A stretch of DNA of 44,488 nt from Acidimicrobiales bacterium (GCA_049522375.1 JBEKNX010000001.1:1-44488); one strand, 5' to 3'. Shown: positions 21,827-42,929, counted from the first letter of the stretch. Made by a program: numbers and translations. Notes: generated by a model not told the origin, from the letters alone.

Positions 21827-22045
21827 CCACGAAATGATGGTTGGCCATATTCAGATTCTTCCCCATCTATGGGCTTTGTGTCCAGAGAAATCGCAAAACG
21901 AGAAGATCATGCCGGTTTGACCGGCCGAATGTCACTGTGCGTGGCCGTTTACAGGTCTGGGCCCGGCCGCTAACATTGTCTGAAGTTCGAGGTGGGCACC
22001 TGTCGAGTTCTTGGGCCGGCTGTCCCATCTCCGGAACGAGGCCGT

Positions 22046-22090
22046 TGAGCACGCAAGGACTGAGCACGCAAGGACTGAGCACGCAAGAAC
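22046..22090. repeat. 15-bp tandem repeat x3 (tgagcacgcaaggac)
   Basis: Units at 22046, 22061 and 22076; the third reads tgagcacgcaagaac. The array lies either in the 5' UTR or in an N-terminal extension (LSTQG x3) of the GGDEF-EAL gene. Confidence 0.85.
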
Positions 22091-22131
22091 AGGGGACAAC
22101 TAAGCCCGAGGGGCGCACGGGTCAGCTTTCG

Positions 22132-27346: not shown

Positions 27347-27475
27347 GCACAAACCTCGCTCTCTACCTGCCCCGGCCGACGAATTGCCACCAACAATATG
27401 TTGGCGCGTCTAAACGACCCGGCCTTTGACCTCCGGCGTTCCCTGATGGCCCGATTTCGCTCCGCCGAACGGCCT

Positions 27476-27739
27476 TTACGGCCCGGGTCGTCCTGCGTCG
27501 GGCGGGGCCGGGCGCCTCAGCGCCTTCAACGCCTCCAGCTCGGAGGCGGAGGTGGCGGAGGTGGCGGCCTGCCGGTTGGCGGCGGTGAGAGCGGCAAAGA
27601 CCTCTTCCCGGTGGACCTGGATCTCTTTGGGGGCAGTGATACCAAGACGCACCTGGTCCCCTCGGACCTCCAAGACGGTGACAACCACGTCGTGACCGAT
27701 AACGATGCTCTGATGGACGTGCCTGGTTAGCACCAGCAC
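27476..27739 (-). CDS. csrA: Carbon storage regulator / translational repressor CsrA
   Basis: 87 aa. MLVLTRHVHQSIVIGHDVVVTVLEVRGDQVRLGITAPKEIQVHREEV is the canonical CsrA fold sequence. GTG start with AAGGAG 6 nt upstream. Carries a roughly 35-aa C-terminal extension. Confidence 0.9.
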   Translation of the reverse strand: MLVLTRHVHQSIVIGHDVVVTVLEVRGDQVRLGITAPKEIQVHREEVFAALTAANRQAATSATSASELEALKALRRPAPPDAGRPGP

Positions 27740-27795
27740 CTCTCGCTCCTTCCCTGGGCGATGGGCCGGAGCCTAGTAGCTCGACTCGGCCGGCG

Positions 27796-28221
27796 CTAAG
27801 GGCGACTGACGATCGGGGCGGCGGGAGAGTGGCCCGAGCCGGACAGCACGGCTTGCACGGCCTGGCCCGTGGCCTTGTTGATCACCAACGGGCCAAGCAG
27901 GTTGGCGGTGCTCTTCTCCGCCGTGCCGTGCAGCGTGAGGATGACGAGGACCAGCACGTCGTCAGGACCGCCGGCATCCACCGCCGGGAAGACCTCCGGA
28001 GCGAACCGGGGTTCGTACCCGGGGAAGAAGACGGCCGGCCGTACAGCGACGAACCGCAGCCCGACCACCTCGTGGCACTCCAGGACTAAGAAGGGGCTCG
28101 GCTCGGTCCCCCATGGCTTGACGGTAAAGGACTTGGCCAGCGGGAAACCGGGTACACCGGCGGCGAAATGCAGCTCGGCGTGGTCCTGGTCCGTCTGGGG
28201 CAGCACGCTTATGGCCGTCAT
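27796..28221 (-). CDS. fliW: Flagellar assembly factor FliW
   Basis: 141 aa. FAAGVPGFPLAKSFTV, PFLVLE and ANLLGPLVIN are FliW motifs. ATGA overlap with the flgL stop. Confidence 0.9.
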   Translation of the reverse strand: MTAISVLPQTDQDHAELHFAAGVPGFPLAKSFTVKPWGTEPSPFLVLECHEVVGLRFVAVRPAVFFPGYEPRFAPEVFPAVDAGGPDDVLVLVILTLHGTAEKSTANLLGPLVINKATGQAVQAVLSGSGHSPAAPIVSRP

Positions 28222-29162: not shown

Positions 29163-29167
29163 GGCCG

Positions 29168-30637
29168 CTACCCGTTGACCATCGATACGAGGGACTGGAG
29201 GACGTCGTCGACGGTGCTTATGAACTTGGCCGAGGCGTCATAAGCGTTCTGGTACATGACCATGTTGGTCATCTCTTGGTCCGTGTTGACGCCGGTGGCC
29301 GACTGGAGCGCCGAATTGACGTTGGTCGTGACCGCTTGCTGGTTGGTCAGGCTGTTGTTGACCGTAGAAGTGGCCTGGCCTATCCCCGTCACGAGCTGGT
29401 TGTAAGCAACATCCGCCTCGGGCCCGGTGGTCGTGGAGGCACCGGTCCAGGACGTGGCTGACGCGCCGGCCGACCATCCGCCGGACGGCTCCCCAATAGT
29501 GACAGTTTGGGAGTTGGGCATTTCCCCGACCTCGGCGGCCAGGCTCCCGTCCTGGTTGGTGGCCGACGAGCCCGATGGTACGGGCGTGGACGCCGCGGCG
29601 ATGAGCGACGGGTCGGCGGCCACGGCCGGGTTCACTTCGATGTCAGAGGCCCCGGTGCCCAGGAAGAAAGGGGCCCCCGGGTTGCCGTTGAGGTCGTAAC
29701 CCGTGCTCATCAGGTAGTTGACCGAGCCCATGAGGCTCTGGGACACCTGGTCCAGGTCCTGTTGGTAGCCGGGGACGTACTGGTTGAGCACGGCCAGGTC
29801 CCCGGCCAGTTCCCCGCTGCTGGGCTGGAAACTCGACTGGTCCTGGCTCCACACCAGCGAATAGGGCGGCCCGCCGCTCGACAGGGACAGCGTCTGGGAA
29901 TTGACCCCGGACACCAGCGCTTCACTGCCGGCGTAGACGTTGGCCGTCCCGTTGGCGTTGTAGGTGACATTGACGCCCAGCTGGTTGGACAGCTGTGAGA
30001 TCAGCTGGTCGCGCTGGTCGGCCAGCTCGGCGGAGTTCGAACTGTCCGGCGAGGCCTGGAGCATCTGCTGGTTGAGCGAGGCTATCTGCGCCGCCTCCTG
30101 GTTGACCTGTGCCAGCGTGCTCGTCGTGGCCTGGACGGTCTGCTGGCCGAGCGTGTTGAGAGCGGCGGAGGTCTGGTTGAGCGACGAGGTGAGGCTGGCC
30201 GCGTCCTGGACCAGAGTCGAGCGGGTGGCGCCGTCGGACGGGTTGTTGGCCAGGGTCGACCAGTCCTGCCAGAACTGGTTGAGCTGGGACGATATCCCGG
30301 TCGTGGACGGCTCGGGGAAGTTCTCCTGCACGGCCTGGAGACCGGTTTGCTGGGCCGTGAGCATGCCCTGGTTGCCCTGCTCGGTATAGCTGCGCTGCTG
30401 CAGGTACGTGTTGCTGAGGCGCTGGATCCCCGCCACCTCGACACCGTCACCGGGTTGGGCAGACGCGCTCTGGTCGAAGCCCAGGTGCTGGACGGCGCCG
30501 ACCGCGCCGAGCTGGACCTGTTCTTCGACATAGCCCGGCGTGCTGGCGTTGGCAACGTTCTGGCCCACGGTGTCCAGGGCCACCTGCTGTGCCTCCAGCC
30601 CGGAGAGCCCGACGGTCAGGTCCGAAAAGTCGCTCAA
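29168..30637 (-). CDS. flgK: Flagellar hook-associated protein 1 FlgK
   Basis: 489 aa. TTG start with GAGGTGAT upstream. N-terminal GLSGLEAQQVALDTVGQNVANASTPGY rod/hook motif and C-terminal MVMYQNAYDASAKFISTVDDVL. Confidence 0.9.
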   Translation of the reverse strand: MSDFSDLTVGLSGLEAQQVALDTVGQNVANASTPGYVEEQVQLGAVGAVQHLGFDQSASAQPGDGVEVAGIQRLSNTYLQQRSYTEQGNQGMLTAQQTGLQAVQENFPEPSTTGISSQLNQFWQDWSTLANNPSDGATRSTLVQDAASLTSSLNQTSAALNTLGQQTVQATTSTLAQVNQEAAQIASLNQQMLQASPDSSNSAELADQRDQLISQLSNQLGVNVTYNANGTANVYAGSEALVSGVNSQTLSLSSGGPPYSLVWSQDQSSFQPSSGELAGDLAVLNQYVPGYQQDLDQVSQSLMGSVNYLMSTGYDLNGNPGAPFFLGTGASDIEVNPAVAADPSLIAAASTPVPSGSSATNQDGSLAAEVGEMPNSQTVTIGEPSGGWSAGASATSWTGASTTTGPEADVAYNQLVTGIGQATSTVNNSLTNQQAVTTNVNSALQSATGVNTDQEMTNMVMYQNAYDASAKFISTVDDVLQSLVSMVNG

Positions 30638-30649
30638 AGTTCGATCACC

Positions 30650-31168
30650 TCAGATCGTTTCGTTCACGAGAAGATGGCCGGCGGGGGACTGCGAAGCCAC
30701 GCCGGTCGACGTGTAGGCCTGGGCCGGGGGGCCGGCGTTGCCGGTGAGCCAGTTGAGCGCCTCCCGGGCCGCGTCCCGGCCCTTGGCCAGCAGATGGCGG
30801 TTGCGCTCGGACAGGTCACGCACTTCGCTCGTCAGCTCGAGGAACGCCTGGCGGTGGCGGGCAAAGATCGAAGACCACGGTTCAGGGGCGGCCTGGGAGA
30901 GCGAGCGCAGTCCCGGGTAGGAGGGGAGCCCGAGCTCTATGGCGGCGCCTTCCACCTTGACCGCCCGCAAGAGCTCGGCCGCTCGCAACTGGTCGAGCAC
31001 GATCTCGACCTCCCGGGAGGCGTGGTTGACCCACCTGGCCTTCCCGGCATTGAGGAGCAGCTGCTCTTCCTCCAGTTTGAACACGAGGAGCTCCAGCAGC
31101 TGCCGCTCGCGCCACAGCACGGTGGACACCTCGTTCAGGACCTGGTCTCGCTCGTCTCCTCGCTCCAC
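30650..31168 (-). CDS. flgN: FlgN-family flagellar export chaperone
   Basis: LNEVSTVLWRERQLLELLVFKLEEEQLLL is a typical FlgN N-terminus. The ORF is open to GTG 31237, but a sigma-28-like promoter inside that extension places the predicted TSS at GTG 31168. Confidence 0.75.
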   Translation of the reverse strand: MERGDERDQVLNEVSTVLWRERQLLELLVFKLEEEQLLLNAGKARWVNHASREVEIVLDQLRAAELLRAVKVEGAAIELGLPSYPGLRSLSQAAPEPWSSIFARHRQAFLELTSEVRDLSERNRHLLAKGRDAAREALNWLTGNAGPPAQAYTSTGVASQSPAGHLLVNETI

Positions 31169-31175
31169 ATGGGGT

Positions 31176-31203
31176 TCATCGGTACGGCCGGTCAGCACCT
31201 GAG
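31176..31203 (-). promoter_or_regulatory. Sigma-28-type promoter candidate for flgN-flgK-flgL-fliW-csrA (leaderless geometry)
   Basis: The minus strand reads CTCAG-N15-ACCGATGA-N7-GTG(31168). Confidence 0.5.
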
Positions 31204-31360
31204 GGCCCAAGAAGAGAAATCTCCGAAATTTCGCCACACTGAGAGAGATTCATGGGCTAAGTTGACCACACAACGTAGTATTCCGAGCCCGAAAACGGCG
31301 AAATAAGCGATTTCATATAGCTTCATTAGTTTTCGTGACTAGCCCATTTAGGTCACCCCG

Positions 31361-31372
31361 GGACTTAAGTCC
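31361..31372. promoter_or_regulatory. 12-bp perfect palindrome ggacttaagtcc abutting the fliA promoter -35
   Basis: Perfect dyad in the AT-richer flgN/fliA divergent region, ending 1 nt before the CTAAA -35-like element. Candidate operator. Confidence 0.35.
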
Positions 31373-31373
31373 T

Positions 31374-31402
31374 CTAAAGATCCGGGCCACCTGGCCCGAT
31401 GT
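31374..31402 (+). promoter_or_regulatory. Sigma-28-type promoter candidate upstream of fliA (autoregulation, leaderless geometry)
   Basis: CTAAA-N16-CCCGATGT-N6-GTG(31409). The distance from the pentamer start to the start codon is 35 nt, the same as at four other sites in the locus. Confidence 0.45.
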
Positions 31403-31408
31403 GACAAA

Positions 31409-32341
31409 GTGCCCTGGGGTCAGCCTGAGACTGGTGTCCGGACCGGCGGCCGTCGCGTCGCCGCTGGCAACTCCTCAGCCGTGCACGAGCAGGCCAAGGC
31501 GCAAGAAGAGCTCGTGCGTTCTCATTTGCCTCTGGTCAACTACATGGTCTCTGAGATCGCCGGGCGCATCCCCCGCCACGTCTGCCGTACCGACCTCGTC
31601 TCCGCCGGCATGGCCGGGCTGGCCCAAGCGGCCAAGTCGTACCAGCCCGGCCGGGGCGTCACGTTCCAGCGCTTCGCGTCCTCACGCATCCGGGGCGCCA
31701 TACTGGACGAGCTTCGTGCCCGCGACTGGGCCAGCCGGTCCGTGCGAGCCAAGGCCCGGGACCTGGCCCAGGTCACCGACAAACTGACGGCCAAGCTCGG
31801 GCGCCAGCCCTCGGCGGCCGAGGTCGCCGCGGTCATGGGTACCAGCGCCGACGAGCTCGATGCCCTAAACGCCGACGTCTACCGCGCCCTGGTCCTCAAC
31901 CTCGACGCCCTGCCGGTGGAGGGCAAGAGCGAGGAGAGCCTGTTCTCGGGCACTCCTGCGCCGGACGAGGACGTCCTCGACAACGAGAAGCGCGCTTACC
32001 TGGTGGCGGCCGTGGACAGCCTTCCCGAGCGCTTGCGCCGGGTGGTCGTCGGCTACTTCTTCGAAGAGCTGCCCATGCAGGTGCTGGCCGAGGAGCTGGG
32101 GGTCACGGACTCCCGCATCTCCCAGATGCGGGCCGAAGCCCTGGTGCTGTTGCGTGACGCCATCAATTCCCAGCTCGACCCGGACCTCGTCCAGCCCGAG
32201 GCCTCCGAGCGGGTGGCCAAGCGCCGCTACGCCTATTACGCCGCCGTGGCCGCCCATGACGACTACCGCCGGCGTCTCGACCCCTCGGCCGGCCAGCTCG
32301 CCAGCCTGGCCAAGCGCAACGACCTCGCCGCCCTGGCCTAA
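31409..32341 (+). CDS. fliA: FliA/WhiG-family (sigma-28) RNA polymerase sigma factor
   Basis: LVRSHLPLVNYMVSEIAGRIP (region 2), FQRFASSRIRGAILDELR, and MQVLAEELGVTDSRISQMRAEAL (region 4.2 HTH). Start is GTG 31409 (favoured by promoter geometry) or GTG 31481. About 55-60 residues follow region 4.2. Confidence 0.9.
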   Translation: MPWGQPETGVRTGGRRVAAGNSSAVHEQAKAQEELVRSHLPLVNYMVSEIAGRIPRHVCRTDLVSAGMAGLAQAAKSYQPGRGVTFQRFASSRIRGAILDELRARDWASRSVRAKARDLAQVTDKLTAKLGRQPSAAEVAAVMGTSADELDALNADVYRALVLNLDALPVEGKSEESLFSGTPAPDEDVLDNEKRAYLVAAVDSLPERLRRVVVGYFFEELPMQVLAEELGVTDSRISQMRAEALVLLRDAINSQLDPDLVQPEASERVAKRRYAYYAAVAAHDDYRRRLDPSAGQLASLAKRNDLAALA

Positions 32342-32416
32342 CGCCACCCTCGTTTGGCCCAGCCTCGTTCAGCCTGCCGTGCTCAGGGGCGTGCGGTAGT
32401 CCGCGTGGCTCATCGG

Positions 32417-32444
32417 CTCAGGTGCCGCCCCCGGGTGCCGAGGG
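32417..32444 (+). promoter_or_regulatory. Weaker sigma-28-like promoter candidate for the first GT2-TPR gene
   Basis: CTCAG-N15-GCCGAGGG-N7-GTG(32452). The geometry is exact, but the conserved T of CGAT is replaced by G. Confidence 0.3.
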
Positions 32445-32451
32445 AGAACCT

Positions 32452-33582
32452 GTGAGGCTAGGCCTTTTGAGCGTTGTCATGCCTGCCTTCAACCCGGGCA
32501 GGTTTTTGTTGCCCGCGATCGAAAGCGTCCTGGGCCAAAGCTGGCAGGACCTCGAGCTCATCGTGGTCAACGACGGGTCAACCGACGGCTCGACGGAGAT
32601 CCTTTCTGCGGTCCGGGACCGTCGACTGCGGGTCATAAACCAGGAAAACGCCGGGGAAAGCGCGGCGCGCAACACTGGCCTGCAGCATTGCCAGGGCGAG
32701 TACATAATGTGGAACGATGCTGACGACATCTCGCTCCCCCACCGGGCCGCCACTCTCGTCGATGCCCTCGAAGGGTCAGCCGCCAGCTTTGCCCACTCCG
32801 ACATGCTCCTCGTCGACGCGGACGGAGCCCCGCTGGGGTACTGGCAGGCGGCACCGGTGCCCCCCGCCCGCATGCTCCAGTTCCTCCTGAGAGTCGGCAC
32901 GCCGTTCAACAACGCGTCCATGCTCGTGCGGGCCGAGGTCTTTTCCGGCTTGAGCTTCAACCGATCTTTGTTGATAGGCACCGACACAGACATGGTCCGC
33001 CAGTTCGCCCCCGAAAAGCCGGGCGTGTACGTGCCCGAGCCGCTCCTGCTCTACCGTCGGTGGGCTGGCACCGCCACCAATGGCGGCAGCTCGGCACAGG
33101 AGACGGACCAGGTCGAAGTACTGCTCGGGGCCCACAGTCCCGAAGAGCTCGTGCCAGAAGCGAAAACGGGGCGGGACCAAGAGTGCTGGCGTCCGGTGGC
33201 GCTTGCCCTGGTGGCGTTGGCATTGGTCCGTCGAGGACTTGTGGACAGTGGGGCCCGACGCCTGCAAGCCGCGGCGAGCGGCTGTCCTGAGGCCGCACGG
33301 CCCTTGGTGGCGGCAGTGGCCGCCTTGTGCGAAGGCAACCTTCGCAGCGCTGAGACTTGCCTTTCTCTTTGCGGTGACGGCGACGCCATCGCCGTGAACC
33401 TGAGGGGAGAGATCCACGCTCAACGCGGGGAGTGGACGGCAGCGACCGCCGCCTTCCGGGATGCGCTCGCCATCGACCCGTCCTACTACGAGCCCGTCCT
33501 CAACCTCCGAGGTGCAGGAGGGGCGAGAGGCATGAACCTGGTTGACCGCACGTGGGCTCGTTTTGTGCCCCGGGCGGCGTAG
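32452..33582 (+). CDS. Glycosyltransferase family 2 with C-terminal TPR-like region
   Basis: LSVVMPAFNPGRFLLPAIESVLGQSWQDLELIVVNDGSTDGS and NDADDIS (DxD) indicate a GT-A fold. The C-terminal GEIHAQRGEWTAATAAFRDALAIDPSYYEPVLNL is TPR-like. The ORF is open from GTG 32422. Confidence 0.8.
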   Translation: MRLGLLSVVMPAFNPGRFLLPAIESVLGQSWQDLELIVVNDGSTDGSTEILSAVRDRRLRVINQENAGESAARNTGLQHCQGEYIMWNDADDISLPHRAATLVDALEGSAASFAHSDMLLVDADGAPLGYWQAAPVPPARMLQFLLRVGTPFNNASMLVRAEVFSGLSFNRSLLIGTDTDMVRQFAPEKPGVYVPEPLLLYRRWAGTATNGGSSAQETDQVEVLLGAHSPEELVPEAKTGRDQECWRPVALALVALALVRRGLVDSGARRLQAAASGCPEAARPLVAAVAALCEGNLRSAETCLSLCGDGDAIAVNLRGEIHAQRGEWTAATAAFRDALAIDPSYYEPVLNLRGAGGARGMNLVDRTWARFVPRAA

Positions 33583-33586
33583 CCCT

Positions 33587-35362
33587 TCACGCCACCGCAG
33601 GGCCCGAGACGACAAACCACCGCGAGAACCGCGCCCCCGGGCCCAAGATCTCCAGGGCGCCGGCCAGGATCTCCCGCTCCTGTCCGGTGAGCCGGCCCGA
33701 CCGCACGGCTGCCCCCAGGCGCCAGAAGTCCGGGTGGTCCGGCCAGTCTTCAAGGGCCATCCTGACGATTGCCTCCGCCTTGTCCAACTGGCCCCCGGCT
33801 ATGAGCGCCAAGACCATCCAGCGGACTACTCCCGGTGCCTCCTCCTGTCCCGATTTCATGCTCTGCAGGACCCGCAACGCCGGTCCCGGTTGGCCTTTCA
33901 TGATCAAACGCTGAGCTCGTGCCAACCCGTCTTGTGCCTCGGCGGCGATGGGGTACTTTGTCATCACGGGCGACCAGAACCGGGCCCGGCCCGGGTGACC
34001 TGTGCCCCTTCTGGCCACGGTTACCCATTGGGCCTCGATCTGGCCGGCGCCGACGTCTCTTAAGACCGGGAACTGCGCCTCCATTTCGTGGCACCGGGGC
34101 AGGAAGCCCAGGAGGTGGTCCAACTCTTTCGGTTCGATCGTCTTCGCGAGATCGGGATCTATTTCCCACTCACCGGGCTTCGAAGCCGGCGCGACGGTGG
34201 TGGCCGCTAAATCCGCGTAGTAGCGGTGCAGTTCCTGAATGGTTGCCGGCCACGAGAACCGTTGCGCCGTCTGCAAACCGCCGCTCCGGCACCGGGCGCG
34301 TAGCCCGCCGTCGCTCAGCATGGCCTGGATCCCCTCGGCCAGAGCCTTGGGGTCCCGGAGCGGCACAACGAACGAGTTCTCGCCGTGACGGACATACTCG
34401 AGGGCTCCCACGTTGGCGGTCGTGACGACGGGTGTGCCGCACGCCATAGCCTCCAGGGGCGGGAGCGGGAACGACTCGTAATGCGAGGCGCAAACGTAAA
34501 CCGCCGCCTGGCGGTACAGGCAGGCGAGGGCTGGCTGGCTGGGTGAGACAACTACGGTCCCGGCGGGCCGGGCAGGCGGGCGCGGAGTCACCCAGACCAA
34601 TCGGAGCCCGGGGTCGTCGGCTTTCAACAGGTCCCACGCTCTCAGCGCGTCCGCGATCCCCTTGAACTCCTGGCCATCCCAACCGACCAACAGCATGTAC
34701 CGGTCAGCCTCTTTAGTCGCAGGGCGGGCCCCAGGGCAGAACACGTCGAGGTCCACCGCGTTGTGGAACACGTGGGCGCGGATGCCGTAACGGTCGTGAA
34801 GGACCCGAGAGGTCTGCTCACTTACCGTAATGGTACGGTCTGCTGCATCAAGATGGTCCTGTACGAACTGCCGTACGTCGGGGCTCAGCTCCTCGTAAAG
34901 GTGGAAATCGCCCTGCTCGAAGTGGACGACAGGAGCGAGGCCCGTTGCCCTGGCGTCGATAACCTGGTCCCAGTACCCGGCGACTATCACGTCGGTCGGA
35001 GGGATCGCGTCGGACAGGCGCAACCCGAACGGGACACGGACGAAGGGAGCGTCAAGCTGCACCCAGCCCGGGCGGGGCCCGTGGGACACGACCGTGACTT
35101 GGTTACCGATCGCTTGTAAGCGGGAGGCGTGCTCGACCAGCACCCTCGCGCCCCCGCCGACGTCTGTTCGGGGCATTAAGTAGCAGATCCGCACGGGACC
35201 GACCTTTGGTCGGGGGCGTAGTGGGGGCAGGTGGCCGCTGTGCCCCACCATTTCGCGCAGCTCCCCTCCGTTGCGCCCACGGGCGGAGGCGAGCGCTTTA
35301 TCCAGAAGAGAGGGAGTGAAGAGATGACCAAGGCCAGAGGCCCGCCCGGCGGTTCGGTCCAC
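33587..35362 (-). CDS. Glycosyltransferase (GT-B, family 4/1) with C-terminal TPR-like region
   Basis: VRICYLMPRTDVGGGARVLVEHASRL and ESFPLPPLEAMACGTPVVTT indicate GT-B. The C-terminus is helical-repeat (KGQPGPALRVLQSM..., LIAGGQLDKAEAIVRMALEDWPDHPDFW). GTG 35362 is favoured by promoter geometry; the alternative is ATG 35251. Confidence 0.8.
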   Translation of the reverse strand: MDRTAGRASGLGHLFTPSLLDKALASARGRNGGELREMVGHSGHLPPLRPRPKVGPVRICYLMPRTDVGGGARVLVEHASRLQAIGNQVTVVSHGPRPGWVQLDAPFVRVPFGLRLSDAIPPTDVIVAGYWDQVIDARATGLAPVVHFEQGDFHLYEELSPDVRQFVQDHLDAADRTITVSEQTSRVLHDRYGIRAHVFHNAVDLDVFCPGARPATKEADRYMLLVGWDGQEFKGIADALRAWDLLKADDPGLRLVWVTPRPPARPAGTVVVSPSQPALACLYRQAAVYVCASHYESFPLPPLEAMACGTPVVTTANVGALEYVRHGENSFVVPLRDPKALAEGIQAMLSDGGLRARCRSGGLQTAQRFSWPATIQELHRYYADLAATTVAPASKPGEWEIDPDLAKTIEPKELDHLLGFLPRCHEMEAQFPVLRDVGAGQIEAQWVTVARRGTGHPGRARFWSPVMTKYPIAAEAQDGLARAQRLIMKGQPGPALRVLQSMKSGQEEAPGVVRWMVLALIAGGQLDKAEAIVRMALEDWPDHPDFWRLGAAVRSGRLTGQEREILAGALEILGPGARFSRWFVVSGPAVA

Positions 35363-35369
35363 GAGGGTC

Positions 35370-35397
35370 CGATCGGCCGGTCGCTGGCCCTTCTTAG
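35370..35397 (-). promoter_or_regulatory. Sigma-28-type promoter candidate for the GT4-TPR gene (leaderless geometry)
   Basis: The minus strand reads CTAAG-N15-GCCGATCG-N7-GTG(35362). The 8-mer is identical to the fliC one. Confidence 0.5.
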
Positions 35398-35406
35398 TCG
35401 CGCCAG

Positions 35407-35434
35407 CTCAAGTCTGGGCCCGAGCGGACGATCG
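35407..35434 (+). promoter_or_regulatory. Sigma-28-type promoter candidate for the second GT2-TPR gene (leaderless geometry)
   Basis: CTCAA-N15-GACGATCG-N7-ATG(35442). Confidence 0.5.
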
Positions 35435-35441
35435 GGATTGC

Positions 35442-37172
35442 ATGAGCCCCGTCGCGGACCGAGGACGGAAGGGCCGGCCACGACCCGCTAAGCGCCTATG
35501 CCGGGGCGGGGCCGCCGCCTCCGGCAGCAGGGCCGGGATCCTTATTTCCGCCTGCCTGATCGTAAAGGACGAGGAAGAGGCTTTGCCTTTATGCCTGGCC
35601 TCCTTGGACCGGTTGGTGGACGAGGTCGTTGTCTATGACACCGGGTCTACCGACGCCACCGTGGAATTGTCCCGGCAAGCCGGTGCCAGGGTCATCGAGG
35701 GCTACTGGGACGACGATTTCGGACGCGCCCGCAACGCCAGCCTTGAGCATTGCCGGGGCGAATGGATCCTGTGGATAGACGCCGACGAGCGTTTCGTATG
35801 CCCCGACGCCCGGGAGCTCCGGGGAGCTCTCCCCCTGCTCAAAGGCGTCGACGCCCTCCTTGTCGCCATCTCCAACTTCGGTGGGGACGGAACGGCCGTG
35901 TCCGGTGCGCACCGAGCCTTCCGCCTGTTCCGTAAAGCCACCTGCCAGTGGTACGGCGCCCTTCACGAGCAGGTCGACCTGCGCCCGGGCTTTAACCGTG
36001 AGGTGATCGCCAGCCCCCTAAAGGGTGCGCACATAGAGCACTACGGGTACTTGGACGAGGTCGTAAAAGAGCGGGACAAGTCGTCACGGAACCTTCGCAT
36101 AGCCGAGGCCGCGGTGGCGAGGGGCACGGCAAGACGTGGCGAGGAAGGTATGCACGAGCTCAATCTGGCCCGGGCCCTGGCCGCCATGGGCAAGATCGAG
36201 GAGGCGCAGCCCCATTTCGACAAAGCGGTGGCGACCGCCCACGACGGCCTCCCCCTGCGAGCCTGCCTCTTGTATGGTGCGCAAAACCTTGTGGCGCTGG
36301 GACGCCTGGAGGAAGCGGTGGCGGCCGCCCAGCGCCTCCAGGAGATGTGTGAACAAAAAGACCTGGCCTACTATATAGAAGGGACGGCGCACCGGCGCCT
36401 GGGTCGACCAGGACCAGCCGTCGCCCTTTTCGACCGGGTCAGCGAGCTCGCTAACGAAGACGGCTTCAGGTTCCCGCTTTTCATGCTGCACGCCGAGCGA
36501 GCCGGCGCCCTTCTGGAGGCGGGCCGGGCGGCGGAGGCGGCAGACGAACTCGTGGTCTTGGTGGAACAGAACCCGGACGTCCAGCACATCACCGCTGCCC
36601 TCAAGGCCTTTACCGTAGCCGGGAAGTCGATAGATTCCCTCGTCGCGGCGATGCCCGCCGACCGCCTCGAAAGAGTGGGCGCCGCGCTTACGCTGGTGCC
36701 GCCGGAGGTGGCAGACCAGATGGCGGAGGCCCTGTGGGTGCGCTTCGGCACCCGGCCCCAACTGCTGGCCGCCTCTATACGCTTCGCTCCCCGGCTCGGC
36801 GCGTCCCGGGCACTGGAGTGGTCAGTGCGACTGCGCTCGATCGGCATGGCCGCCTGCTGCCCGCTCCTGGCCCGGGCCACCCTCGACGAGGTGGCCGCAG
36901 CTGAACGGGTCCGGGCCGGCGTCACCGCCCACGCCGCCTTTGCCGACCCGAAAGGGGCCGAGCTTGCCCTGGCCGCGGTCAGCCTGGTTGCCGCCGAGGA
37001 GCTCGAAGCCGTCCTGTCCGAAGTCGCCTTGATGGACCCACCTCTTCTTGGCGAATTCGCTGCCGCCGCGGGCAGGAGCGACCGGGAAATGAGCGCGCAA
37101 GTCGAGAATGGCGCATTGTCGGAAGACGGGGTACCCGCTCCTCAACTGGCCTCTCTCGGTGCCGATCGCTAA
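35442..37172 (+). CDS. Glycosyltransferase family 2 with long C-terminal TPR region (GmaR-like architecture)
   Basis: ISACLIVKDEEEALPLCLASLDRLVDEVVVYDTGSTDAT and WIDADERF (DxD) indicate GT-A. About 350 aa of helical/TPR-like repeats follow. Lies immediately upstream of fliC. Confidence 0.8.
   Translation: MSPVADRGRKGRPRPAKRLCRGGAAASGSRAGILISACLIVKDEEEALPLCLASLDRLVDEVVVYDTGSTDATVELSRQAGARVIEGYWDDDFGRARNASLEHCRGEWILWIDADERFVCPDARELRGALPLLKGVDALLVAISNFGGDGTAVSGAHRAFRLFRKATCQWYGALHEQVDLRPGFNREVIASPLKGAHIEHYGYLDEVVKERDKSSRNLRIAEAAVARGTARRGEEGMHELNLARALAAMGKIEEAQPHFDKAVATAHDGLPLRACLLYGAQNLVALGRLEEAVAAAQRLQEMCEQKDLAYYIEGTAHRRLGRPGPAVALFDRVSELANEDGFRFPLFMLHAERAGALLEAGRAAEAADELVVLVEQNPDVQHITAALKAFTVAGKSIDSLVAAMPADRLERVGAALTLVPPEVADQMAEALWVRFGTRPQLLAASIRFAPRLGASRALEWSVRLRSIGMAACCPLLARATLDEVAAAERVRAGVTAHAAFADPKGAELALAAVSLVAAEELEAVLSEVALMDPPLLGEFAAAAGRSDREMSAQVENGALSEDGVPAPQLASLGADR
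37141..37168 (+). promoter_or_regulatory. Sigma-28-type promoter candidate for fliC
   Basis: CTCAA-N15-GCCGATCG, inside the last codons of the upstream GT gene. The predicted TSS near 37176 gives a roughly 69-nt leader. Confidence 0.5.
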
Positions 37173-37201
37173 AACGTCCCGACAATGGGACCTACAACAC
37201 A

Positions 37202-37241
37202 GGGGCGCTCACGGATGGGCCCCTTCTGACCCCATGGAGGA
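37202..37241 (+). promoter_or_regulatory. Putative CsrA binding sites in the fliC leader (hairpin-loop GGA plus SD-overlapping GGA)
   Basis: The stem ggggc (37202-37206) / gcccc (37219-37223) presents a gctcACGGAtgg loop with GGA at 37213-37215. A second GGA at 37236-37238 lies inside the ATGGAGGA Shine-Dalgarno, 4 nt before ATG 37245. Confidence 0.5.
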
Positions 37242-37244
37242 AAA

Positions 37245-38066
37245 ATGGGTCTCGATATCGTAACCAACATAATGGCGCAGGACGCCTCGAACAGCCTCTC
37301 GATCAACGAGGCGAATATGCAGAACAGCGTGCAGAAGCTGTCTTCTGGCTACCAGATCAACAAGGCCGCCGACGACGCGTCTGGCCTCGTCATCAGCCAG
37401 CACCTGCAGTCCCAGATCGGTGGCTTCCAGCAGGCGCAAGCCAACACCCAGAGCGCCATCAACGTCGTCCAGACGGCCGACGGCGCCCTGAACGAGGTCG
37501 GCACCATCCTGCAGCGCATCAACACCCTGACCGTCGAATCCCAGAACACCACGGCTACTGACGCCACCGCCCAGACGGCGGCGCAGGACGAGGTCAACGC
37601 CTCGCTGCAGTCGCTCAACGACATCGCCAATACGACCGTCTATGGCAACAATCAGCTGCTGACCGCCAGCGGCGGCGTGGTGACCTTCGCCTTCCAGGTC
37701 GGCGCCGACGAATCGGGCTACAGCCAGCTCAGCTTCACCTTTGGTGCTCTTTCGGTGAGCGGTCTCTCGCTAACCGGCTTCTCAGTGACCAGTGCGACAG
37801 CCCTTACTAGTGTTCAGACCGCCATCGACAACGTCTCCGGCCTCAGAGGCACGCTCGGCGCCTACCAGAACGAGCTGCAGCACATCTCGGACAACGAAGG
37901 CGTCATGGTCCAGAACCTGCAAGCCTCCAACGCCCAGATCGAAGACACCAACATGGCGTCGGAGATGTCCAACTTCACCCAGGACCAGGTCCTCGTGCAA
38001 GCAGGTGTGTCCATGCTGGCACAGGCCAACCAGATACCCGATTACGTGCTCAAGCTGCTCGGCTAA
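37245..38066 (+). CDS. fliC: Flagellin
   Basis: 273 aa. N-terminal NSVQKLSSGYQINKAADDASGLVISQ and C-terminal MSNFTQDQVLVQAGVSMLAQANQIPDYVLKLLG are the conserved flagellin D0/D1 termini. The central region is short and Ser/Thr-rich. Confidence 0.95.
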   Translation: MGLDIVTNIMAQDASNSLSINEANMQNSVQKLSSGYQINKAADDASGLVISQHLQSQIGGFQQAQANTQSAINVVQTADGALNEVGTILQRINTLTVESQNTTATDATAQTAAQDEVNASLQSLNDIANTTVYGNNQLLTASGGVVTFAFQVGADESGYSQLSFTFGALSVSGLSLTGFSVTSATALTSVQTAIDNVSGLRGTLGAYQNELQHISDNEGVMVQNLQASNAQIEDTNMASEMSNFTQDQVLVQAGVSMLAQANQIPDYVLKLLG

Positions 38067-38097
38067 CGCCTGAGTGGTCCCATATCCAAGGTCAACC

Positions 38098-38131
38098 GGC
38101 GGCCGGCCATCACAGGGGGCTGGCCGCCTTT
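38098..38131 (+). terminator. Candidate intrinsic terminator after fliC
   Basis: ggcggccgg (38098-38106) pairs with ctggccgcc (38120-38128; one G-U) around a 13-nt loop and is followed by TTT. Confidence 0.4.
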
Positions 38132-38187
38132 GGCCTGAAAACGCTCAGGGGCGCAAGCCACCCCGGCCCTGATGAGAGGAGCTATCA

Positions 38188-40779
38188 ATGTCGGTCAGCA
38201 GCAGTGGCTCGACCTCACAAGAGCTCGGTTACCTCAACACGGCGCAATCGCTGGCCACGCTCATGGGCACCAGTGACACCGCCTACAGCGCCGGCGGCCC
38301 CCCCCTCACCCTGAGCGGCCTCGCCTCGGGCCTCGACACAGCCCAGATCGTGGCCGACCTCATGCAGGCGAACGAGCAACCCCAGGTACAGCTCCAAGAC
38401 CAGCTCAACCAGGCTTCCGCCGTTATGGCCGCGTACCAGAACATCTCTACCGACGTAGCTACACTTCAGTCGGCGGCGGACACCCTGGAGTCCCCCTCGG
38501 GGTGGCAGGCCTGGATCCCCAACTCCTCGACAAACGACGCCACGGCCACGGTGGGCCCGGGCGCCACCGGCGGATCCATCACCTTTAGCGTCGACTCCCT
38601 GGCCCAGGCCGAATCAGAGATCTCGTCCGGCAGCGTCAGCTCGCAAACAGCGCAGATAACCAGCGGCCCCCTGCTGGTGGCGGTGGGCGGCGGGCGCCTG
38701 GGCATCGGCACCCTCGCCTCTTCGAACCTGTCCGCCGGTAACCACACGATCGCCGTCACTCAAGCGTCGGCAGGGGCCTCGCTCGCAGCCACGGTGGCAC
38801 CCGCCGCTTCCACCACGATTACTGCCGGCAGCAACGACACTCTGACCTACGACCTGGACGGCACGCCCGAGTCTCTCACCATCCCGGCCGGGACCTACAC
38901 GCCGACCACCCTGGCCGCGGCCGTGCAGACCGCCTCAGGAGGCCAGCTCACGGCCTCGGTCAACTCCTCGGGCGACGTCGTGCTCAACACCGTCGCCCAG
39001 GGCAGCGGCACGTCCCTGCAGATCACCGGCGGCGACGCGGCCGCCGCGCTCAGGTTTTCGGCCACCCCGAGCATCACCGCTACGGGCACCGACGGGATCG
39101 TGACGGTCGACGGGGTCGCCAATGACCTCACCAACTTTTCTCCCGGCCAGGCCGTGACCCTCAACGGGCCGAGCGGCGCCACGGTTTCCGCCACCTTCAC
39201 CGGGCCGCTGACAGTCGGCTCGCTGACCGCGGCCGAGGTGAACACGGGCAATGGCAGCCTGCAGTCGGTCGTGAGCGCCATAAACGGTGCCGGGCTAGGC
39301 ATATCGGCCAGCGCGGTGACCACCGGCGCCAACGAGTACCGCCTTTCCCTCCAGTCGACTTCGTCGGGCGCCGCCAACACGCTGAACATCGCCACCGATG
39401 CGTTCTCGGGGGTCGGTGCCCTGACCACGGTCACGGCGGCCGCCGACGCCGCCATTACGGTAGGCAACGGCCCGGGCGCCTTCCAGGTGACCAATAGCTC
39501 CAACAGCATCACCGGGTTGATGCCCGGGGTTACCCTCGACCTGCTCCAGGCCGACCCCGGTACTCAGACGACGGTCTCACTGCAACCCGATGGGCAGACG
39601 ATGGCCACGACGGTGCAGAGCCTGGTAACGGCGGCCAACCAGTTGATCACCGACCTTAATACGGCCACCGCGTACGCGCCGTCCAGTTCCTCGCCGGACA
39701 GCTCATCGAGCTCCGGCACGGCTGGCCCGCTGCTTGGCGACCCCACCGCCGAGGGCCTGCTCGACTCCGTGCTCTCCGCCATCGGCGACCAGGCCGGGGT
39801 CAACAGCACGGGCTCGTCGGGCCTGGTGGGCATAACCATGAACGAGGACGGGACCTTGAGCTTCGACAGCAACGCCTTCGCGAAGGCTTACGACGCCAAC
39901 CCCACTCAGGTCGCCAACACCTTCATTACCGGCGGCTCCAGCTCCAGTCCGCTCATGTCCTTCTATGAGTCCACCGACGCCACCGCCACCGGGGACTACC
40001 AGGTGGACGTGACCCAGGCTGGCACCCAAGCCACCGACACGGGGGCGGCGGTGGCGGGTGGGGCGGTGAGCACGCCCGAGACGCTCACCGTCGCCTCAGG
40101 CAGTGTCAGCGCTAGCTACACCACGACCGCCGGGGAGTCCCTCGACGACGTCGCCGCCGGTCTCAACCAGGCGTTCTCCGCCCAGAACCTTGCCGTCAAC
40201 GCCGCCGTGCTAAACGGCGCCCTGGTGCTGAACAGCATGGCTTATGGCTCGGCGTCGTCCTTTACTGTCACCTCGACCGCTTCCGGTGCTGGGACGACCG
40301 GCCTCACCTCGGCCACGGGCACGCCGCAGACGTTCACCGGTACCGACGTCCAGGGCACGATCAACGGCCAGGCGGCCACCGGAACGGGCCAGCTCCTCCT
40401 GGGAGCCGCCAACAGTTCGGCCCAAAACCTGCTCGTGCTCGTGAACGCCACGCCTGCCCAGCTGGCGTCCAGCGGGGGCACGGCCAGCGGCACCATCAGC
40501 TATCAGCCCGGGATCGCCCAGGCTCTGGCCACCGCCGCCTACGCCGCCGGCAACCCCGGCACGGGGACGCTGACCAACGCCATCAGCGGCGAACAGAGCC
40601 AGATGAGCGACCTCTCGACCCAGATCTCGGACTGGAACCCCATACTCCAGGAGAAGCAGACCCAGCTCGAAAACCAGTACAACGCCATGGAAACCACCCT
40701 GGCAGCGCTCAAGACCACCCAGAACGCACTAACCGAGTACTTCAACCAAGCCTCCAACAGCTCGAGTAGCTCAGGCTGA
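38188..40779 (+). CDS. fliD: Flagellar filament cap protein FliD (unusually long)
   Basis: 863 aa. N-terminal LSGLASGLDTAQIVADLMQANEQPQVQLQDQ and C-terminal QISDWNPILQEKQTQLENQYNAMETTLAALKTTQNAL are FliD N/C domains. The central region, about 600 aa, is rich in Ser/Thr/Gly/Ala. Confidence 0.9.
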   Translation: MSVSSSGSTSQELGYLNTAQSLATLMGTSDTAYSAGGPPLTLSGLASGLDTAQIVADLMQANEQPQVQLQDQLNQASAVMAAYQNISTDVATLQSAADTLESPSGWQAWIPNSSTNDATATVGPGATGGSITFSVDSLAQAESEISSGSVSSQTAQITSGPLLVAVGGGRLGIGTLASSNLSAGNHTIAVTQASAGASLAATVAPAASTTITAGSNDTLTYDLDGTPESLTIPAGTYTPTTLAAAVQTASGGQLTASVNSSGDVVLNTVAQGSGTSLQITGGDAAAALRFSATPSITATGTDGIVTVDGVANDLTNFSPGQAVTLNGPSGATVSATFTGPLTVGSLTAAEVNTGNGSLQSVVSAINGAGLGISASAVTTGANEYRLSLQSTSSGAANTLNIATDAFSGVGALTTVTAAADAAITVGNGPGAFQVTNSSNSITGLMPGVTLDLLQADPGTQTTVSLQPDGQTMATTVQSLVTAANQLITDLNTATAYAPSSSSPDSSSSSGTAGPLLGDPTAEGLLDSVLSAIGDQAGVNSTGSSGLVGITMNEDGTLSFDSNAFAKAYDANPTQVANTFITGGSSSSPLMSFYESTDATATGDYQVDVTQAGTQATDTGAAVAGGAVSTPETLTVASGSVSASYTTTAGESLDDVAAGLNQAFSAQNLAVNAAVLNGALVLNSMAYGSASSFTVTSTASGAGTTGLTSATGTPQTFTGTDVQGTINGQAATGTGQLLLGAANSSAQNLLVLVNATPAQLASSGGTASGTISYQPGIAQALATAAYAAGNPGTGTLTNAISGEQSQMSDLSTQISDWNPILQEKQTQLENQYNAMETTLAALKTTQNALTEYFNQASNSSSSSG

Positions 40780-40803
40780 CGCCGGAAGACCAGGAGAACC
40801 CCG

Positions 40804-41226
40804 ATGCCCCCCACCCGTGCCCGCAGCACCTACCTCGCCAACGCCGTCGCCGGCGCGCCCCGTGAACGGCTCTTGACGATGCTCTACGACGCCCTCCTCA
40901 ACAACATCGTGGTGGCCGAAGATGCCATGGAACGCAAGGACTTCTACACCCTCAACGAGCGTTTGCTGCGGGCCGAGGAGATAGTCCTGGTGCTGCGCGG
41001 CTCCTTGAAGCCCGAGATCTGGTCCGGGGGCCCGGCGCTCATGTCCCTGTACAACTACGTGTACAAGCTGCTGGTGCGGGGCAACACCCACAAGGATGCC
41101 CGTGCCCTGTCCGATGCCCGCAAGGTGCTGGAGCCCCTCCAGGCCGCATGGCATGTTGCCGCCGACCAGGTCCTGGCCGAGAGGGCCGGGGCCCCTCAGC
41201 GGGCGGGGGCCGCGCTCAGTGCGTGA
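40804..41226 (+). CDS. fliS: Flagellin-specific export chaperone FliS
   Basis: 140 aa. RERLLTMLYDALLNNIVVAEDAME and GGPALMSLYNYVYKLLVRGN match the FliS four-helix pattern. Confidence 0.85.
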   Translation: MPPTRARSTYLANAVAGAPRERLLTMLYDALLNNIVVAEDAMERKDFYTLNERLLRAEEIVLVLRGSLKPEIWSGGPALMSLYNYVYKLLVRGNTHKDARALSDARKVLEPLQAAWHVAADQVLAERAGAPQRAGAALSA

Positions 41227-41545
41227 GGTAGAGCTAAAGGCCGAGGCCCGACTGGCCCTACTGGAAAGGCGGGTGGCAGCTCAAGCTGCGGCACTGGCAC
41301 GCGTACCTCTTAACATGAAGGTCCCCCCCGGAGTCATCGCCCTCCTGGCTACGGCGTCCGGTGAACTGGACGTACTACAACTCCCCCCGCGGTGCCACCC
41401 GCATCTGGTCGCCCTTATCGACCAACTGCAGGCGCTCATTGAGAACGTAAGCCTGCGTCAACAAGAACTGGGCGGGCGTCTGATGACCGTGCGCGCCGCC
41501 CGGCGGGCGGGCCCAGCCGCGCACCTGGTCGACTACCGGAGCTGA
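41219..41545 (+). CDS. Hypothetical helical protein in the FliT position
   Basis: 108 aa starting at GTG 41219, which overlaps the fliS end by 8 nt. Predicted helical (LKAEARLALLERRVAAQAAAL..., LVALIDQLQALIENVSLRQQEL). The functional label is by position and size only (fliD-fliS-fliT order in Bacillus). Confidence 0.4.
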   Translation: MREVELKAEARLALLERRVAAQAAALARVPLNMKVPPGVIALLATASGELDVLQLPPRCHPHLVALIDQLQALIENVSLRQQELGGRLMTVRAARRAGPAAHLVDYRS

Positions 41546-41613
41546 TCAGCGGCCTGCAGAGGCGCCCTTAGGCGGCAGAAAAATCGGTAATTGCCACAAT
41601 AGGTGGCCCCGAA

Positions 41614-41641
41614 CTCACATTGGCCCGAGTGCGGCCGATGG
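41614..41641 (+). promoter_or_regulatory. Sigma-28-type promoter candidate upstream of flgB-flgC-fliE-fliF
   Basis: CTCAC-N15-GCCGATGG. The predicted TSS near 41649 gives a roughly 105-nt leader before ATG 41754. Confidence 0.4.
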
Positions 41642-41753
41642 GGAACCCGGAGCAAGGAAGCAGCGCCTCGTACGCCAGGGACTGGCGAACCGAACATTTT
41701 CGGAGGTCCACGGTGTATAGCGCGCGTGCCAACCGGCCGGCGGAGGAGCAGCG

Positions 41754-42116
41754 ATGAGCAACGTCTTCGGCGACGTCGCCACTTCTGCCATATACCAGGC
41801 CATGCAGGGGCTATGGGCCGAGCAACAGGCGGCCGCCAACAACATCGCCAATGCGAACACCCCCGACTTCAAGGCCCAAGACGTCGATTTCGAGTCCAGC
41901 CTGGCCCAGGCCATCGCCAACGGCGACCCCTCACAAATGCAGCTCACCACGTCCGTGTCGAGCGCGCCTTCTGACCAGATCGGCAACAACGTCGACCTGG
42001 CCACGGAAATGGTCAACAGCCAGAAGGCGGGGATGCAGTTCCAGACCATGGTCGACGCCATGAACGCCAAGTTCCAGCTCCTTTCCACCGCCATCAACGG
42101 GCCGAGCGCCAGCTGA
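41754..42116 (+). CDS. flgB: Flagellar basal-body rod protein FlgB
   Basis: 120 aa with GGAGGA upstream. ANNIANANTPDFKAQDVDFE is the rod N-terminal motif. First gene of the flgB-flgC-fliE-fliF order. Confidence 0.85.
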   Translation: MSNVFGDVATSAIYQAMQGLWAEQQAAANNIANANTPDFKAQDVDFESSLAQAIANGDPSQMQLTTSVSSAPSDQIGNNVDLATEMVNSQKAGMQFQTMVDAMNAKFQLLSTAINGPSAS

Positions 42117-42132
42117 GTAACGAGGAGGGAAA

Positions 42133-42570
42133 ATGGGGCTTTTCGATCCGATCAGTACGGCCATGAGCGGTGTCGACGCGTCGGAGACCTGGTTGAACGC
42201 CATATCCGACAACATCGCCAATATGAACGATGTCACCTCGACATCACAGGCCGCCTACCAGGAACGTTTCGTGGTCATGCAGGCCGTCCCGGGCCAATCG
42301 GGGGGCACGGGCAGCGGCGCGGCCAGCGACGCCACCATCGGTAGTGGCGTGGCCGTCGCTGGGGTCGCCCTGGGCAGCCCCGAGGGAGTGGAGGAGTACG
42401 ACCCCGGCAACCCGCTGGCCGACAAGAACGGCATGGTCAGGGCGGCCGATGTGGACCTCGGCCAGCAGATGACCAACATGATGCTGGCCCAGAGGGGCTA
42501 TGAAGCCAACCTCGCCACCATCAGCCAGGCCGAGAATGCCTACCAGGCGGCGTTGGGGCTGAAGGTATGA
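42133..42570 (+). CDS. flgC: Flagellar basal-body rod protein FlgC
   Basis: 145 aa. SDNIANMNDVTS (rod N-motif) and VDLGQQMTNMMLAQRGYEANLATI (rod C-motif). Confidence 0.9.
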   Translation: MGLFDPISTAMSGVDASETWLNAISDNIANMNDVTSTSQAAYQERFVVMQAVPGQSGGTGSGAASDATIGSGVAVAGVALGSPEGVEEYDPGNPLADKNGMVRAADVDLGQQMTNMMLAQRGYEANLATISQAENAYQAALGLKV

Positions 42571-42929
42571 GCATCATCCCCGTTTCCGCGGCCAGCGGGG
42601 CCCTGTTCCCCGCGGCCGAGACGTCCCAGGTGGGCATGGCCGGGCCCACGGCGCCCACCTCGCCCACGGCGCCGCTCGGGGGCGCCGACGGGGCGGCGAG
42701 CGCAGGCGGGGACAGCTTCGCCAACGTTCTCGGCAATGCATTAGACGGCGTGCAGTCGTCCCAGGCCGGCGCCGACAACCTCGCCACGCAGGCGGCCACG
42801 GGGAGCCTCACCAACGTTTCCGACTACATGGTGGCCGCCGAAGAGGCGAACATCCAGACCCAGCTCACCGCCGCCGTGCGCAATAACGCCCTGCAGGCCT
42901 TCCAGCAGATCATGGGGATGCAACTATGA
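42567..42929 (+). CDS. fliE: Flagellar hook-basal body complex protein FliE
   Basis: 120 aa. C-terminal VAAEEANIQTQLTAAVRNNALQAFQQIMGMQL is the FliE signature. ATGA overlaps on both sides. Confidence 0.85.
   Translation: MSIIPVSAASGALFPAAETSQVGMAGPTAPTSPTAPLGGADGAASAGGDSFANVLGNALDGVQSSQAGADNLATQAATGSLTNVSDYMVAAEEANIQTQLTAAVRNNALQAFQQIMGMQL

Follow-up and report, generated by a model that had tools for sequence, protein, structure and literature searches.

We analysed a 44,488-nt stretch of DNA from an Acidimicrobiales bacterium (GCA_049522375.1, JBEKNX010000001.1:1-44488; hereafter the window) and found that seven transcription units of its flagellar gene cluster are preceded by copies of one two-block sequence element of the sigma-28 promoter type. 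We regard these elements, with a probability of roughly 0.8, as promoters for RNA polymerase carrying the FliA/WhiG1-type sigma factor encoded in the same locus. Judged by its sequence, the motif is the known actinobacterial WhiG1/FliA promoter class, here in uncultured Acidimicrobiales; what is new is the lineage, the local logo of the motif, its link with flagellin glycosylation, and a systematic geometry in which, at several sites, predicted transcription starts coincide with start codons, so that the mRNAs would probably be leaderless.

The comparison was based on the window and 36 related loci from metagenome-assembled genomes of Acidimicrobiales/Acidimicrobiaceae, which were fetched via FliA (FliA identity 31-94%). 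These loci, designated by L numbers, are about 20 kb each, and about 20 of them are syntenic with the window. Window and loci together amount to 537 kb, which was searched for the motif on both strands; motif counts refer to this set rather than to whole genomes.

Seven elements with a fixed geometry

Pfam searches confirmed FlgN, FlgK, FlgL, FliW, CsrA, a sigma-70-family protein, two glycosyltransferase (GT) proteins of the GT2-TPR type (GT2a and GT2b), a GT4-TPR protein, flagellin, FliD, FliS, FlgC, FliE and FliF in the cluster. An initial annotation of the window had described seven promoter-like elements, and on recounting all seven are present, each at its position and on its strand (Table 1). 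Also confirmed was its observation that five of them (flgN, GT4, GT2b, GT2a and fliA) keep an exact distance of 35 nt between the start codon and the opening base of the -35 pentamer, which fliA reaches as N16 plus N6. The promoters of GT4 and GT2b stand back-to-back, their start codons 80 bp apart. In general form, the element consists of a -35 CT(C/A)A(G/A)nT and a -10 xCCGAT(C/G)x separated by 15 nt, and the local logo reads CTCAGnT-N13-xCCGAT[CG]. The flgB start that had been placed near 41603 was wrong: flgB is the open reading frame (ORF) 41754-42116, with an ATG at 41754 and the Shine-Dalgarno sequence (SD) GGAGGAG.

Table 1. Predicted promoters and associated features of the flagellar cluster, in window coordinates (Nx, x nucleotides of any kind).
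Feature	Position	Strand	Description
flgN promoter	31176..31203	-	CTCAG-N15-ACCGATGA, then N7, GTG 31168; 35 nt from 31203 to 31168
fliA promoter	31374..31402	+	CTAAA-N16-CCCGATGT, then N6, GTG 31409; 35 nt from 31374 to 31409
fliA, FliA/WhiG-family sigma factor, 310 aa	31409..32341	+	Sigma70 r2, r3 and r4 domains
GT2-TPR (GT2a) promoter	32417..32444	+	CTCAG-N15-GCCGAGGG; GTG start 32452; 35 nt from 32417 to 32452
GT4-TPR promoter	35370..35397	-	CTAAG-N15-GCCGATCG; GTG 35362, first start codon of the ORF; 35 nt from 35397 to 35362
GT2-TPR (GT2b) promoter	35407..35434	+	CTCAA-N15-GACGATCG; ATG start 35442; 35 nt from 35407 to 35442
fliC promoter	37141..37168	+	CTCAA-N15-GCCGATCG; inside the final codons of GT2b
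fliC leader, ~69 nt	37176..37244	+	two CsrA-type GGA sites: hairpin loop ACGGAU, and CAUGGAGG over the SD
flgB-operon promoter	41614..41641	+	CTCAC-N15-GCCGATGG
flgB leader, ~105 nt	41649..41757	+	conserved RNA from predicted +1; short upstream ORF GTG 41713-TGA 41757
fliW (27796-28221) and csrA (27476-27739)	27476..28221	-	distal genes of the flgN unit; FliW and CsrA Pfam matches

The motif exceeds chance and is enriched at a 15-nt spacer

The degenerate (IUPAC) pattern of the initial annotation has five exact matches in the window, against 0.06 expected from shuffled sequences. Since this pattern was derived from the sites themselves, the test is circular, and non-circular tests were therefore run. 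A position weight matrix (PWM) was trained on 33 sites upstream of flgN and fliC, taken from other genomes only with the window excluded. Among these training sites, the CTCAGnT and CCGAT blocks hold 1.0-2.4 bits of information at each position; for the spacer the figure is about 0.03-0.5 bits. When the window was scanned with this matrix (89 kb of positions scored), the four highest scores were those of flgN (28.4), fliC (24.5), GT2a (20.0) and GT2b (13.8), in that order; lower scores were obtained for flgB (9.1), GT4 (7.9) and fliA (2.4, with N16). Shuffled sequence gives 0.013 matches per window at a score of at least 20, 0.26 at 13.8 or above and 2.35 at 9.1 or above.

The spacer length is equally distinctive. 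In the 537 kb, CT[CA]A-Nx-xCCGAT has 56 matches at N15 and nine at N16 (five of which are fliA), and the remaining spacers from 8 to 23 give 0-11. An ORF of at least 80 codons starts 4-9 nt past the octamer, mostly at 6-7 nt, at 33 of 55 N15 matches, compared with 8.5% for the same arrangement at CCGAT without the -35 block; the former figure is inflated by shared ancestry because about 20 of the 33 are flgN orthologues, the other 13 being different genes. The motif is far above chance, and its enrichment is specific for N15. Within the window, the claim that no non-flagellar gene carries the motif with this geometry also holds, the sole additional match to the pattern (7120) being intragenic and attributable to chance.

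A scan of positions 27000-44488 for Escherichia coli-type sigma-70 promoters returned zero sites, hence there are no alternative promoters to propose. Relaxed scans for xCGAx with a nearby start gave mainly intragenic noise, and a relaxed scan filtered on GC content at third codon positions (GC3) lost the GT genes of lower GC3; neither was used.

Identity of the motif and of its probable sigma factor

The classical sigma-28/SigD promoter is TAAA-N15-GCCGATAA, as in Escherichia coli, Salmonella, Bacillus subtilis and Pseudomonas aeruginosa fliC, and fliC and the flgN-flgK-flgL genes are established sigma-28 targets. With this class the window elements share the two-block architecture, the CCGAT core, the 15-nt spacer and fliC and flgN-flgK-flgL as predicted targets, and the -35 of P. 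aeruginosa fliC (TCTAAAG) closely resembles that of the window fliA site (CTAAAG). They differ in having CTCA(G/A) instead of TAAA in the -35 and (C/G)(G/A) instead of AA at the octamer tail. A further difference is that the rod and basal-body operon starting with flgB, as well as fliA itself, also carry the motif, and a tiered hierarchy is not evident.

The likeness to actinobacterial WhiG1/FliA promoters is closer. An Actinomycetota-wide study of 2026 (mSystems, PMC13595943 / PMC12871210) searched for a -35 XT(C/A)AX, a spacer of 16 and a -10 GCCGA. All seven window sites fit a -35 xT(C/A)Ax, a 15-16 nt spacer and a -10 GCCGA with invariant CGA; GT2b (GACGA) and flgN (ACCGA) deviate in the -10, but the published definition tolerates a single mismatch at its first two positions. 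The WhiG1/FliA consensus of Actinoplanes missouriensis, as quoted in the preprint of that study (PMC12871210), is CTCA-N16-17-GCCGAACT. Consensus and spacing are thus the same, CTCA-N16-GCCGA being CTCAN-N15-xCCGA of the window. The -10 of the window is CCGAT(C/G), however, where the published one is GCCGAAC, and the window and its relatives carry an extra conserved T after the -35 (CTCAGnT), unlike the published consensus. The same study reported multiple such promoters per flagellar cluster, autoregulated sigma genes and targets among c-di-GMP enzymes; with the A. missouriensis flagellar cluster the window shares several such promoters in one cluster and predicted autoregulation of the sigma gene. 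The text of the study (PMC13595943 / PMC12871210) contains 'acidimicrobi' 0 times and 'leaderless' 0 times, and neither the leaderless promoter-start geometry nor flagellin-glycosylation targets are described in it.

The fliA product has TIGR02479 as its top family match (E = 7e-55, 222 of 224 profile positions covered), and its closest PDB structures are Streptomyces venezuelae WhiG (6PFV) and FliA (9WSF). The sigma-28-type reading proposed in the initial annotation is hence supported by a FliA/WhiG-family sigma gene within the locus, by the match to a published consensus and by strong phylogenetic footprints.

Conservation of promoters and start codons

The flgN motif, which heads the flgN-flgK-flgL-fliW-csrA unit, is kept in 20 loci whose proteins are 44-87% identical; the spacer sequence varies, and a GTG lies 6-7 nt past the octamer. 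This GTG is the sole conserved start ahead of the invariant DQVLNEVSTVLWRERQLL, and in L004, L006, L007, L009 and L015 in-frame stops lie inside the flgN promoter (at -9, -27 or -33). For fliC, 16 loci keep the motif; it lies within the final codons of the upstream GT gene, some 80 nt ahead of the ATG. For flgB, the motif is found in L001, L002 (N17), L005, L008 and L012 (N16), and also in the metagenome contigs L051, L095, L114 and L132; the latter came from a metagenome scan with 16-mers for the flgB leader, which returned 120 contigs, four with genuine flgB leaders and 116 with chance matches.

The close relatives of the window fliA (L001-L004, L028) have the full motif, in which CT(A/C)AAGATC and GCCCGATGTG are invariant and the spacer varies. 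In 13 more distant loci the -35 becomes TAT[CG][CT]AG, and GCCGA(A/T)-N7-8-ATG is kept. In 19 loci a conserved N-terminal peptide begins at the start codon next to the promoter, VPWGQPETG in the window, [VM]PWGQP[ED][TS]G in close relatives and MxPPRADSGG in others. Between this peptide (31409-31445 and orthologues) and region 2 lies a hypervariable linker of some 15 residues; given the absence of FlgM, the peptide might be a regulatory handle.

The DNA upstream of fliA shows other conserved features. A perfect palindrome, GGACTTAAGTCC (31361-31372, + strand), adjoins the fliA -35 and is kept in close relatives; it occurs once in the window, and its matches with up to two mismatches there are not above chance. 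In more distant relatives, AATTCA precedes the -35-like TAT[CG][CT]AG by 11 nt. The 240-nt flgN-fliA intergenic region (31169-31408) holds further conserved islands, AGAAATCTCCGAAA and ATTTCAT; a regulator priming the expression of fliA may bind at these islands and at the palindrome. Finally, in a more distant group of FliA/WhiG homologues (L018-L027, 56-61% identical), the start is preceded at about 25 nt by tandem CCGAT-type elements such as TCCGATCGCCCGATAG, and these genes are accordingly predicted to be leadered; in L021, L022 and L023, leaderless-type CTCAN-N15-xCCGAT promoters still precede FlgN-like genes.

Among the GT genes, L034, L009 and L035 repeat the GT2b arrangement, in which the unusual -10 GACGATC(G/A) is followed after N6-7 by a start codon, and L005 has GCCGATCG-N8-ATG at GT2b. 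GT2a and GT4 have zero orthologues among the related loci. Both are supported by the fixed distance to the start codon; further support for GT2a comes from the independent PWM, at a score for which 0.013 matches are expected per window, mostly through the -35 and the spacing. The same promoter, with N6-9 and a start codon, is also found in relatives before non-orthologous genes of the glycosylation island, which encode GT4, GT2 and GT17 proteins, a methyltransferase-GT fusion, UDP-galactopyranose mutase, DUF707 and a 310-aa family with no assigned function. Members of this last family (about 310 aa, motif FQVxVxQPDGY) lie just 3' of fliA in several relatives, at the position that GT2a occupies in the window, and each has a predicted leaderless FliA-type promoter (L001:5815-6747, L007:4418-5344, L029:506-1444, L011 near 7196 and L010:10951-11997); the family has zero matches in Pfam or NCBIfam.

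Predicted leaderless transcripts

Leaderless mRNAs are common in Actinomycetota, as is established for Mycobacterium, Streptomyces and Corynebacterium. In the open-complex structure of the P. aeruginosa fliC promoter, the octamer occupies positions -15 to -8 and TCTAAAG positions -36 to -30. With this numbering, a gap of N7 would place +1 at the first base of the start codon, and gaps of N6-N9 within 1-2 nt of it, so that there would be no room for an SD. Upstream of the flgN, fliA and GT4 starts no SD is present, and GT2b has only GGGA; the leadered or internal genes fliC, flgB, flgC, fliD and csrA have GGAGG-type SDs. At GT4 and GT2b, it is the first possible start codon of the ORF that stands at exactly N7. 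A measured counterpart is atsA of A. missouriensis, whose transcription start was mapped by Cappable-seq 1 nt upstream of the start codon (PMC11064477). The predicted starts share with such leaderless Actinomycetota mRNAs (PMC11064477) a position at or 1-2 nt from AUG/GUG and the lack of room for an SD; they differ in being derived from promoter geometry and comparison only, and in belonging to an alternative sigma factor and not to housekeeping promoters.

Alternative explanations

Several observations weigh against the interpretation given above. The sites of flgB, GT4 and fliA are not individually significant by the independent PWM and rest on conservation or position, and the counts across loci are phylogenetically non-independent through shared ancestry. 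The fliA product scores 186.1 bits against TIGR02479, 3.5 below the curated cut-off of 189.6. Its own promoter has an atypical -35 and N16 spacer, and this -35 is not kept beyond close relatives; given the sequence that replaces it in distant ones, another factor may contribute there. The -10 of GT2a, GCCGAGGGAG, overlaps an SD-like GAGGGAG 6-8 nt before GTG 32452. In GT4, which lacks an orthologue, GC3 is 0.68 over codons 1-56 and 0.78 in the body, and the coding signal of this first part is weak. A gene caller, whose starts were taken from a contig 99.99% identical to the window and with the same end point, placed the starts of GT4 and GT2b further downstream, which gives proteins of 491 and 522 aa.

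The GT observations bear on a first alternative, in which the promoters are real and some of the supposedly leaderless genes are leadered: GT4 would be translated from codon 57, and GT2a through GAGGGAG acting as an SD on a fliA-GT2a read-through transcript, its promoter element being then this SD. Besides the SD-like sequence, the GC3 difference and the gene-caller starts, it is favoured by GT4 codon 57 (VRICYLMP), which opens a typical GT4 N-terminus, with the Glyco_transf_4 domain beginning at residue 68. Yet a 491-aa GT4 would cut into the GT4 N-terminal domain, the N-terminal extension of GT2b aligns from residues 1-14 in many relatives, GT2a reaches 20.0 with a PWM trained elsewhere, L011 and L001 share the arrangement just 3' of fliA, and an exact N7 before each ORF's first start codon has an estimated chance probability of about 1e-5 per gene start. 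We consider this alternative possible, with odds clearly below even. By the evidence from promoter geometry and comparison, flgN and fliA are very probably leaderless, and GT2b probably so because many relatives can be aligned with its N-terminal residues. Leaderless translation is uncertain for GT2a, where GCCGAGGGAG is an equally plausible SD on a fliA read-through transcript, and for GT4, where a codon-57 start is possible. Among the five genes that the initial annotation took as apparently leaderless, comparison thus bears out flgN and fliA well, with their conserved starts, and GT2b reasonably.

A second alternative is that the element is recognised by a different alternative sigma factor or by some DNA-binding regulator, and that its sigma-28 likeness is coincidental. 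The dependence of the sites on FliA is, after all, deduced from sequence, and the divergent fliA -35 with its adjoining conserved palindrome GGACTTAAGTCC makes extra factors plausible at that gene. We nevertheless find this explanation very improbable, as the elements match an experimentally derived WhiG1/FliA consensus in both sequence and spacer, are restricted to flagellar and flagellin-glycosylation genes, surround a FliA/WhiG-family sigma gene in mid-locus, and keep a constant distance to start codons that suits a promoter, not an operator. A third possibility, that GC-rich DNA simply yields seven random matches to a loose pattern, is effectively refuted: the pattern did come from the sites themselves and three of them (flgB, GT4 and fliA) fall short individually on the independent PWM, but the spacer control (56 versus 0-11), the five observed matches versus 0.06 in shuffles, and the retention of the motif at orthologous positions across 44-94% protein identity while spacers vary all contradict it. 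Recognition by the locus-encoded FliA/WhiG1-type sigma factor thus remains our preferred reading.

The fliC and flgB leaders

The two units with leaders are those of fliC and flgB. In an alignment of fliC leaders from 15 loci, both CsrA-type sites are conserved, the hairpin GCUC-ACGGAU-GGGC shows three compensatory GC-to-AU changes in its stem, and the AUG sits in a small stem. The CsrA-type sites noted earlier in this leader are supported, since the cluster contains csrA and fliW and two GGA sites lie in the conserved leader; CsrA binding there is predicted. As in the FliW-CsrA-Hag switch of B. subtilis, a hairpin loop holds one GGA of the flagellin leader and the other covers the SD, and the order flgN-flgK-flgL-fliW-csrA is that of the B. 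subtilis flgM-flgN-flgK-flgL-fliW-csrA operon. Unlike in B. subtilis, no flgM lies upstream of flgN in the window, the first gene is predicted to be leaderless, and a second GGA-rich conserved leader stands before the flgB operon.

The flgB leader is highly conserved, and this conservation begins exactly at the predicted +1. In order, it comprises the start GGAGCAAGGAAGCA, an invariant core UACGCCAGGGACUGGC, a CCGAA/UUCGG hairpin and the SD GGAGG. Its upstream ORF (GUG UAY..., 12-37 aa) has a non-conserved peptide and a stop that overlaps or abuts the flgB start (AUGA/GUGA); in the window, TGA 41757 overlaps ATG 41754. RNAalifold pairs UACGCC with GGUGUA at the start of the upstream ORF. The leader alignment shows zero covariation, and the fold is no more stable than shuffled sequence (z = -1.1). 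Rfam gave zero matches in the whole window at gathering thresholds and zero in 37100-41800 at E<=1. We see this leader as a possible target of CsrA or a possible new cis-regulatory RNA.

Other features of the window

Between fliS and flgB lies a small conserved ORF without a family match (41183-41545, +; 76 aa from ATG 41315 according to the gene caller), whose product could be an accessory protein of the flagellum, for example a FliT-like chaperone. A GAF-GGDEF-EAL gene (21841-24711, +), about 7 kb upstream of fliA, has GCCGAATG-N5-GTG(21937), kept in L003. In this candidate site (21915-21939) a clear -35 was not found, L003 being too close for footprinting. The gene may have a weak FliA site, since predicted WhiG targets in Actinomycetota are most often c-di-GMP enzymes.

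The match at 7120, rejected as a promoter, falls inside an HNH-endonuclease-like ORF (6071-7219, +; C-terminus ...CKLCHWQKTERD) in a stretch of poor GC3 (about 5100-8100). Two direct copies of GAGGTGGCGGCCGCAC(G/C)GGCCGCA lie 3' of this ORF (7190-7310).

A regulon model and its meaning

The analysis establishes the motif with its geometry and conservation, and the family to which the sigma gene belongs; recognition of the sites by FliA, the transcription start positions, leaderless translation and binding of CsrA are predictions. We infer that FliA would serve all the transcription units recognisable in this section of the cluster: flgN-flgK-flgL-fliW-csrA, the three glycosyltransferase genes of the flagellin island, fliC, the flgB-flgC-fliE-fliF... 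operon and, through positive autoregulation, fliA itself. At flgN, fliA and GT2b, and less surely at GT2a and GT4, where the start codon lies 6-7 nt past the octamer, transcription would begin at the start codon or within 1-2 nt of it, and the resulting mRNAs would be leaderless and translated without an SD. The conserved GGA-rich leaders of fliC and the flgB operon would be likely points of translational control by FliW-CsrA.

The initial annotation had spoken of a late flagellar regulon. Since the flgB operon, with its rod genes, and fliA share the same promoter type, this term is unjustified; the arrangement looks single-tier, with positive feedback. Acidimicrobiia are frequently flagellated, and FlgM has been reported absent from them. 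A more specific and tentative model, which we think is doubtful as a whole, is that a single FliA-type sigma factor, without FlgM, reads all units, and that their ordering is post-transcriptional. The accessory units (the flgN operon, fliA and the glycosylation genes) would be leaderless and so escape SD- and CsrA-based control, and the gated fliC and flgB operon would carry GGA-rich leaders, that of flgB being a previously undescribed RNA element whose UACGCCAGGGACUGGC core would pair with the start of the coupled upstream ORF.

The general picture of sigma-28 promoters is unchanged by these results, which extend the recent actinobacterial consensus to another class. They provide a well-supported prediction of the FliA regulon and a promoter logo for an uncultured flagellated Acidimicrobiales lineage of peat and soil metagenomes, and they fix start codons for flgN, fliA and probably GT2b, of a kind that gene callers misplace because the genes have no SD. 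The variable flagellin-glycosylation island would be tied to the flagellar sigma factor, and the contrast of leaderless units with those that bear CsrA-type leaders offers a testable hypothesis for how expression may be ordered in a flagellar system without FlgM.

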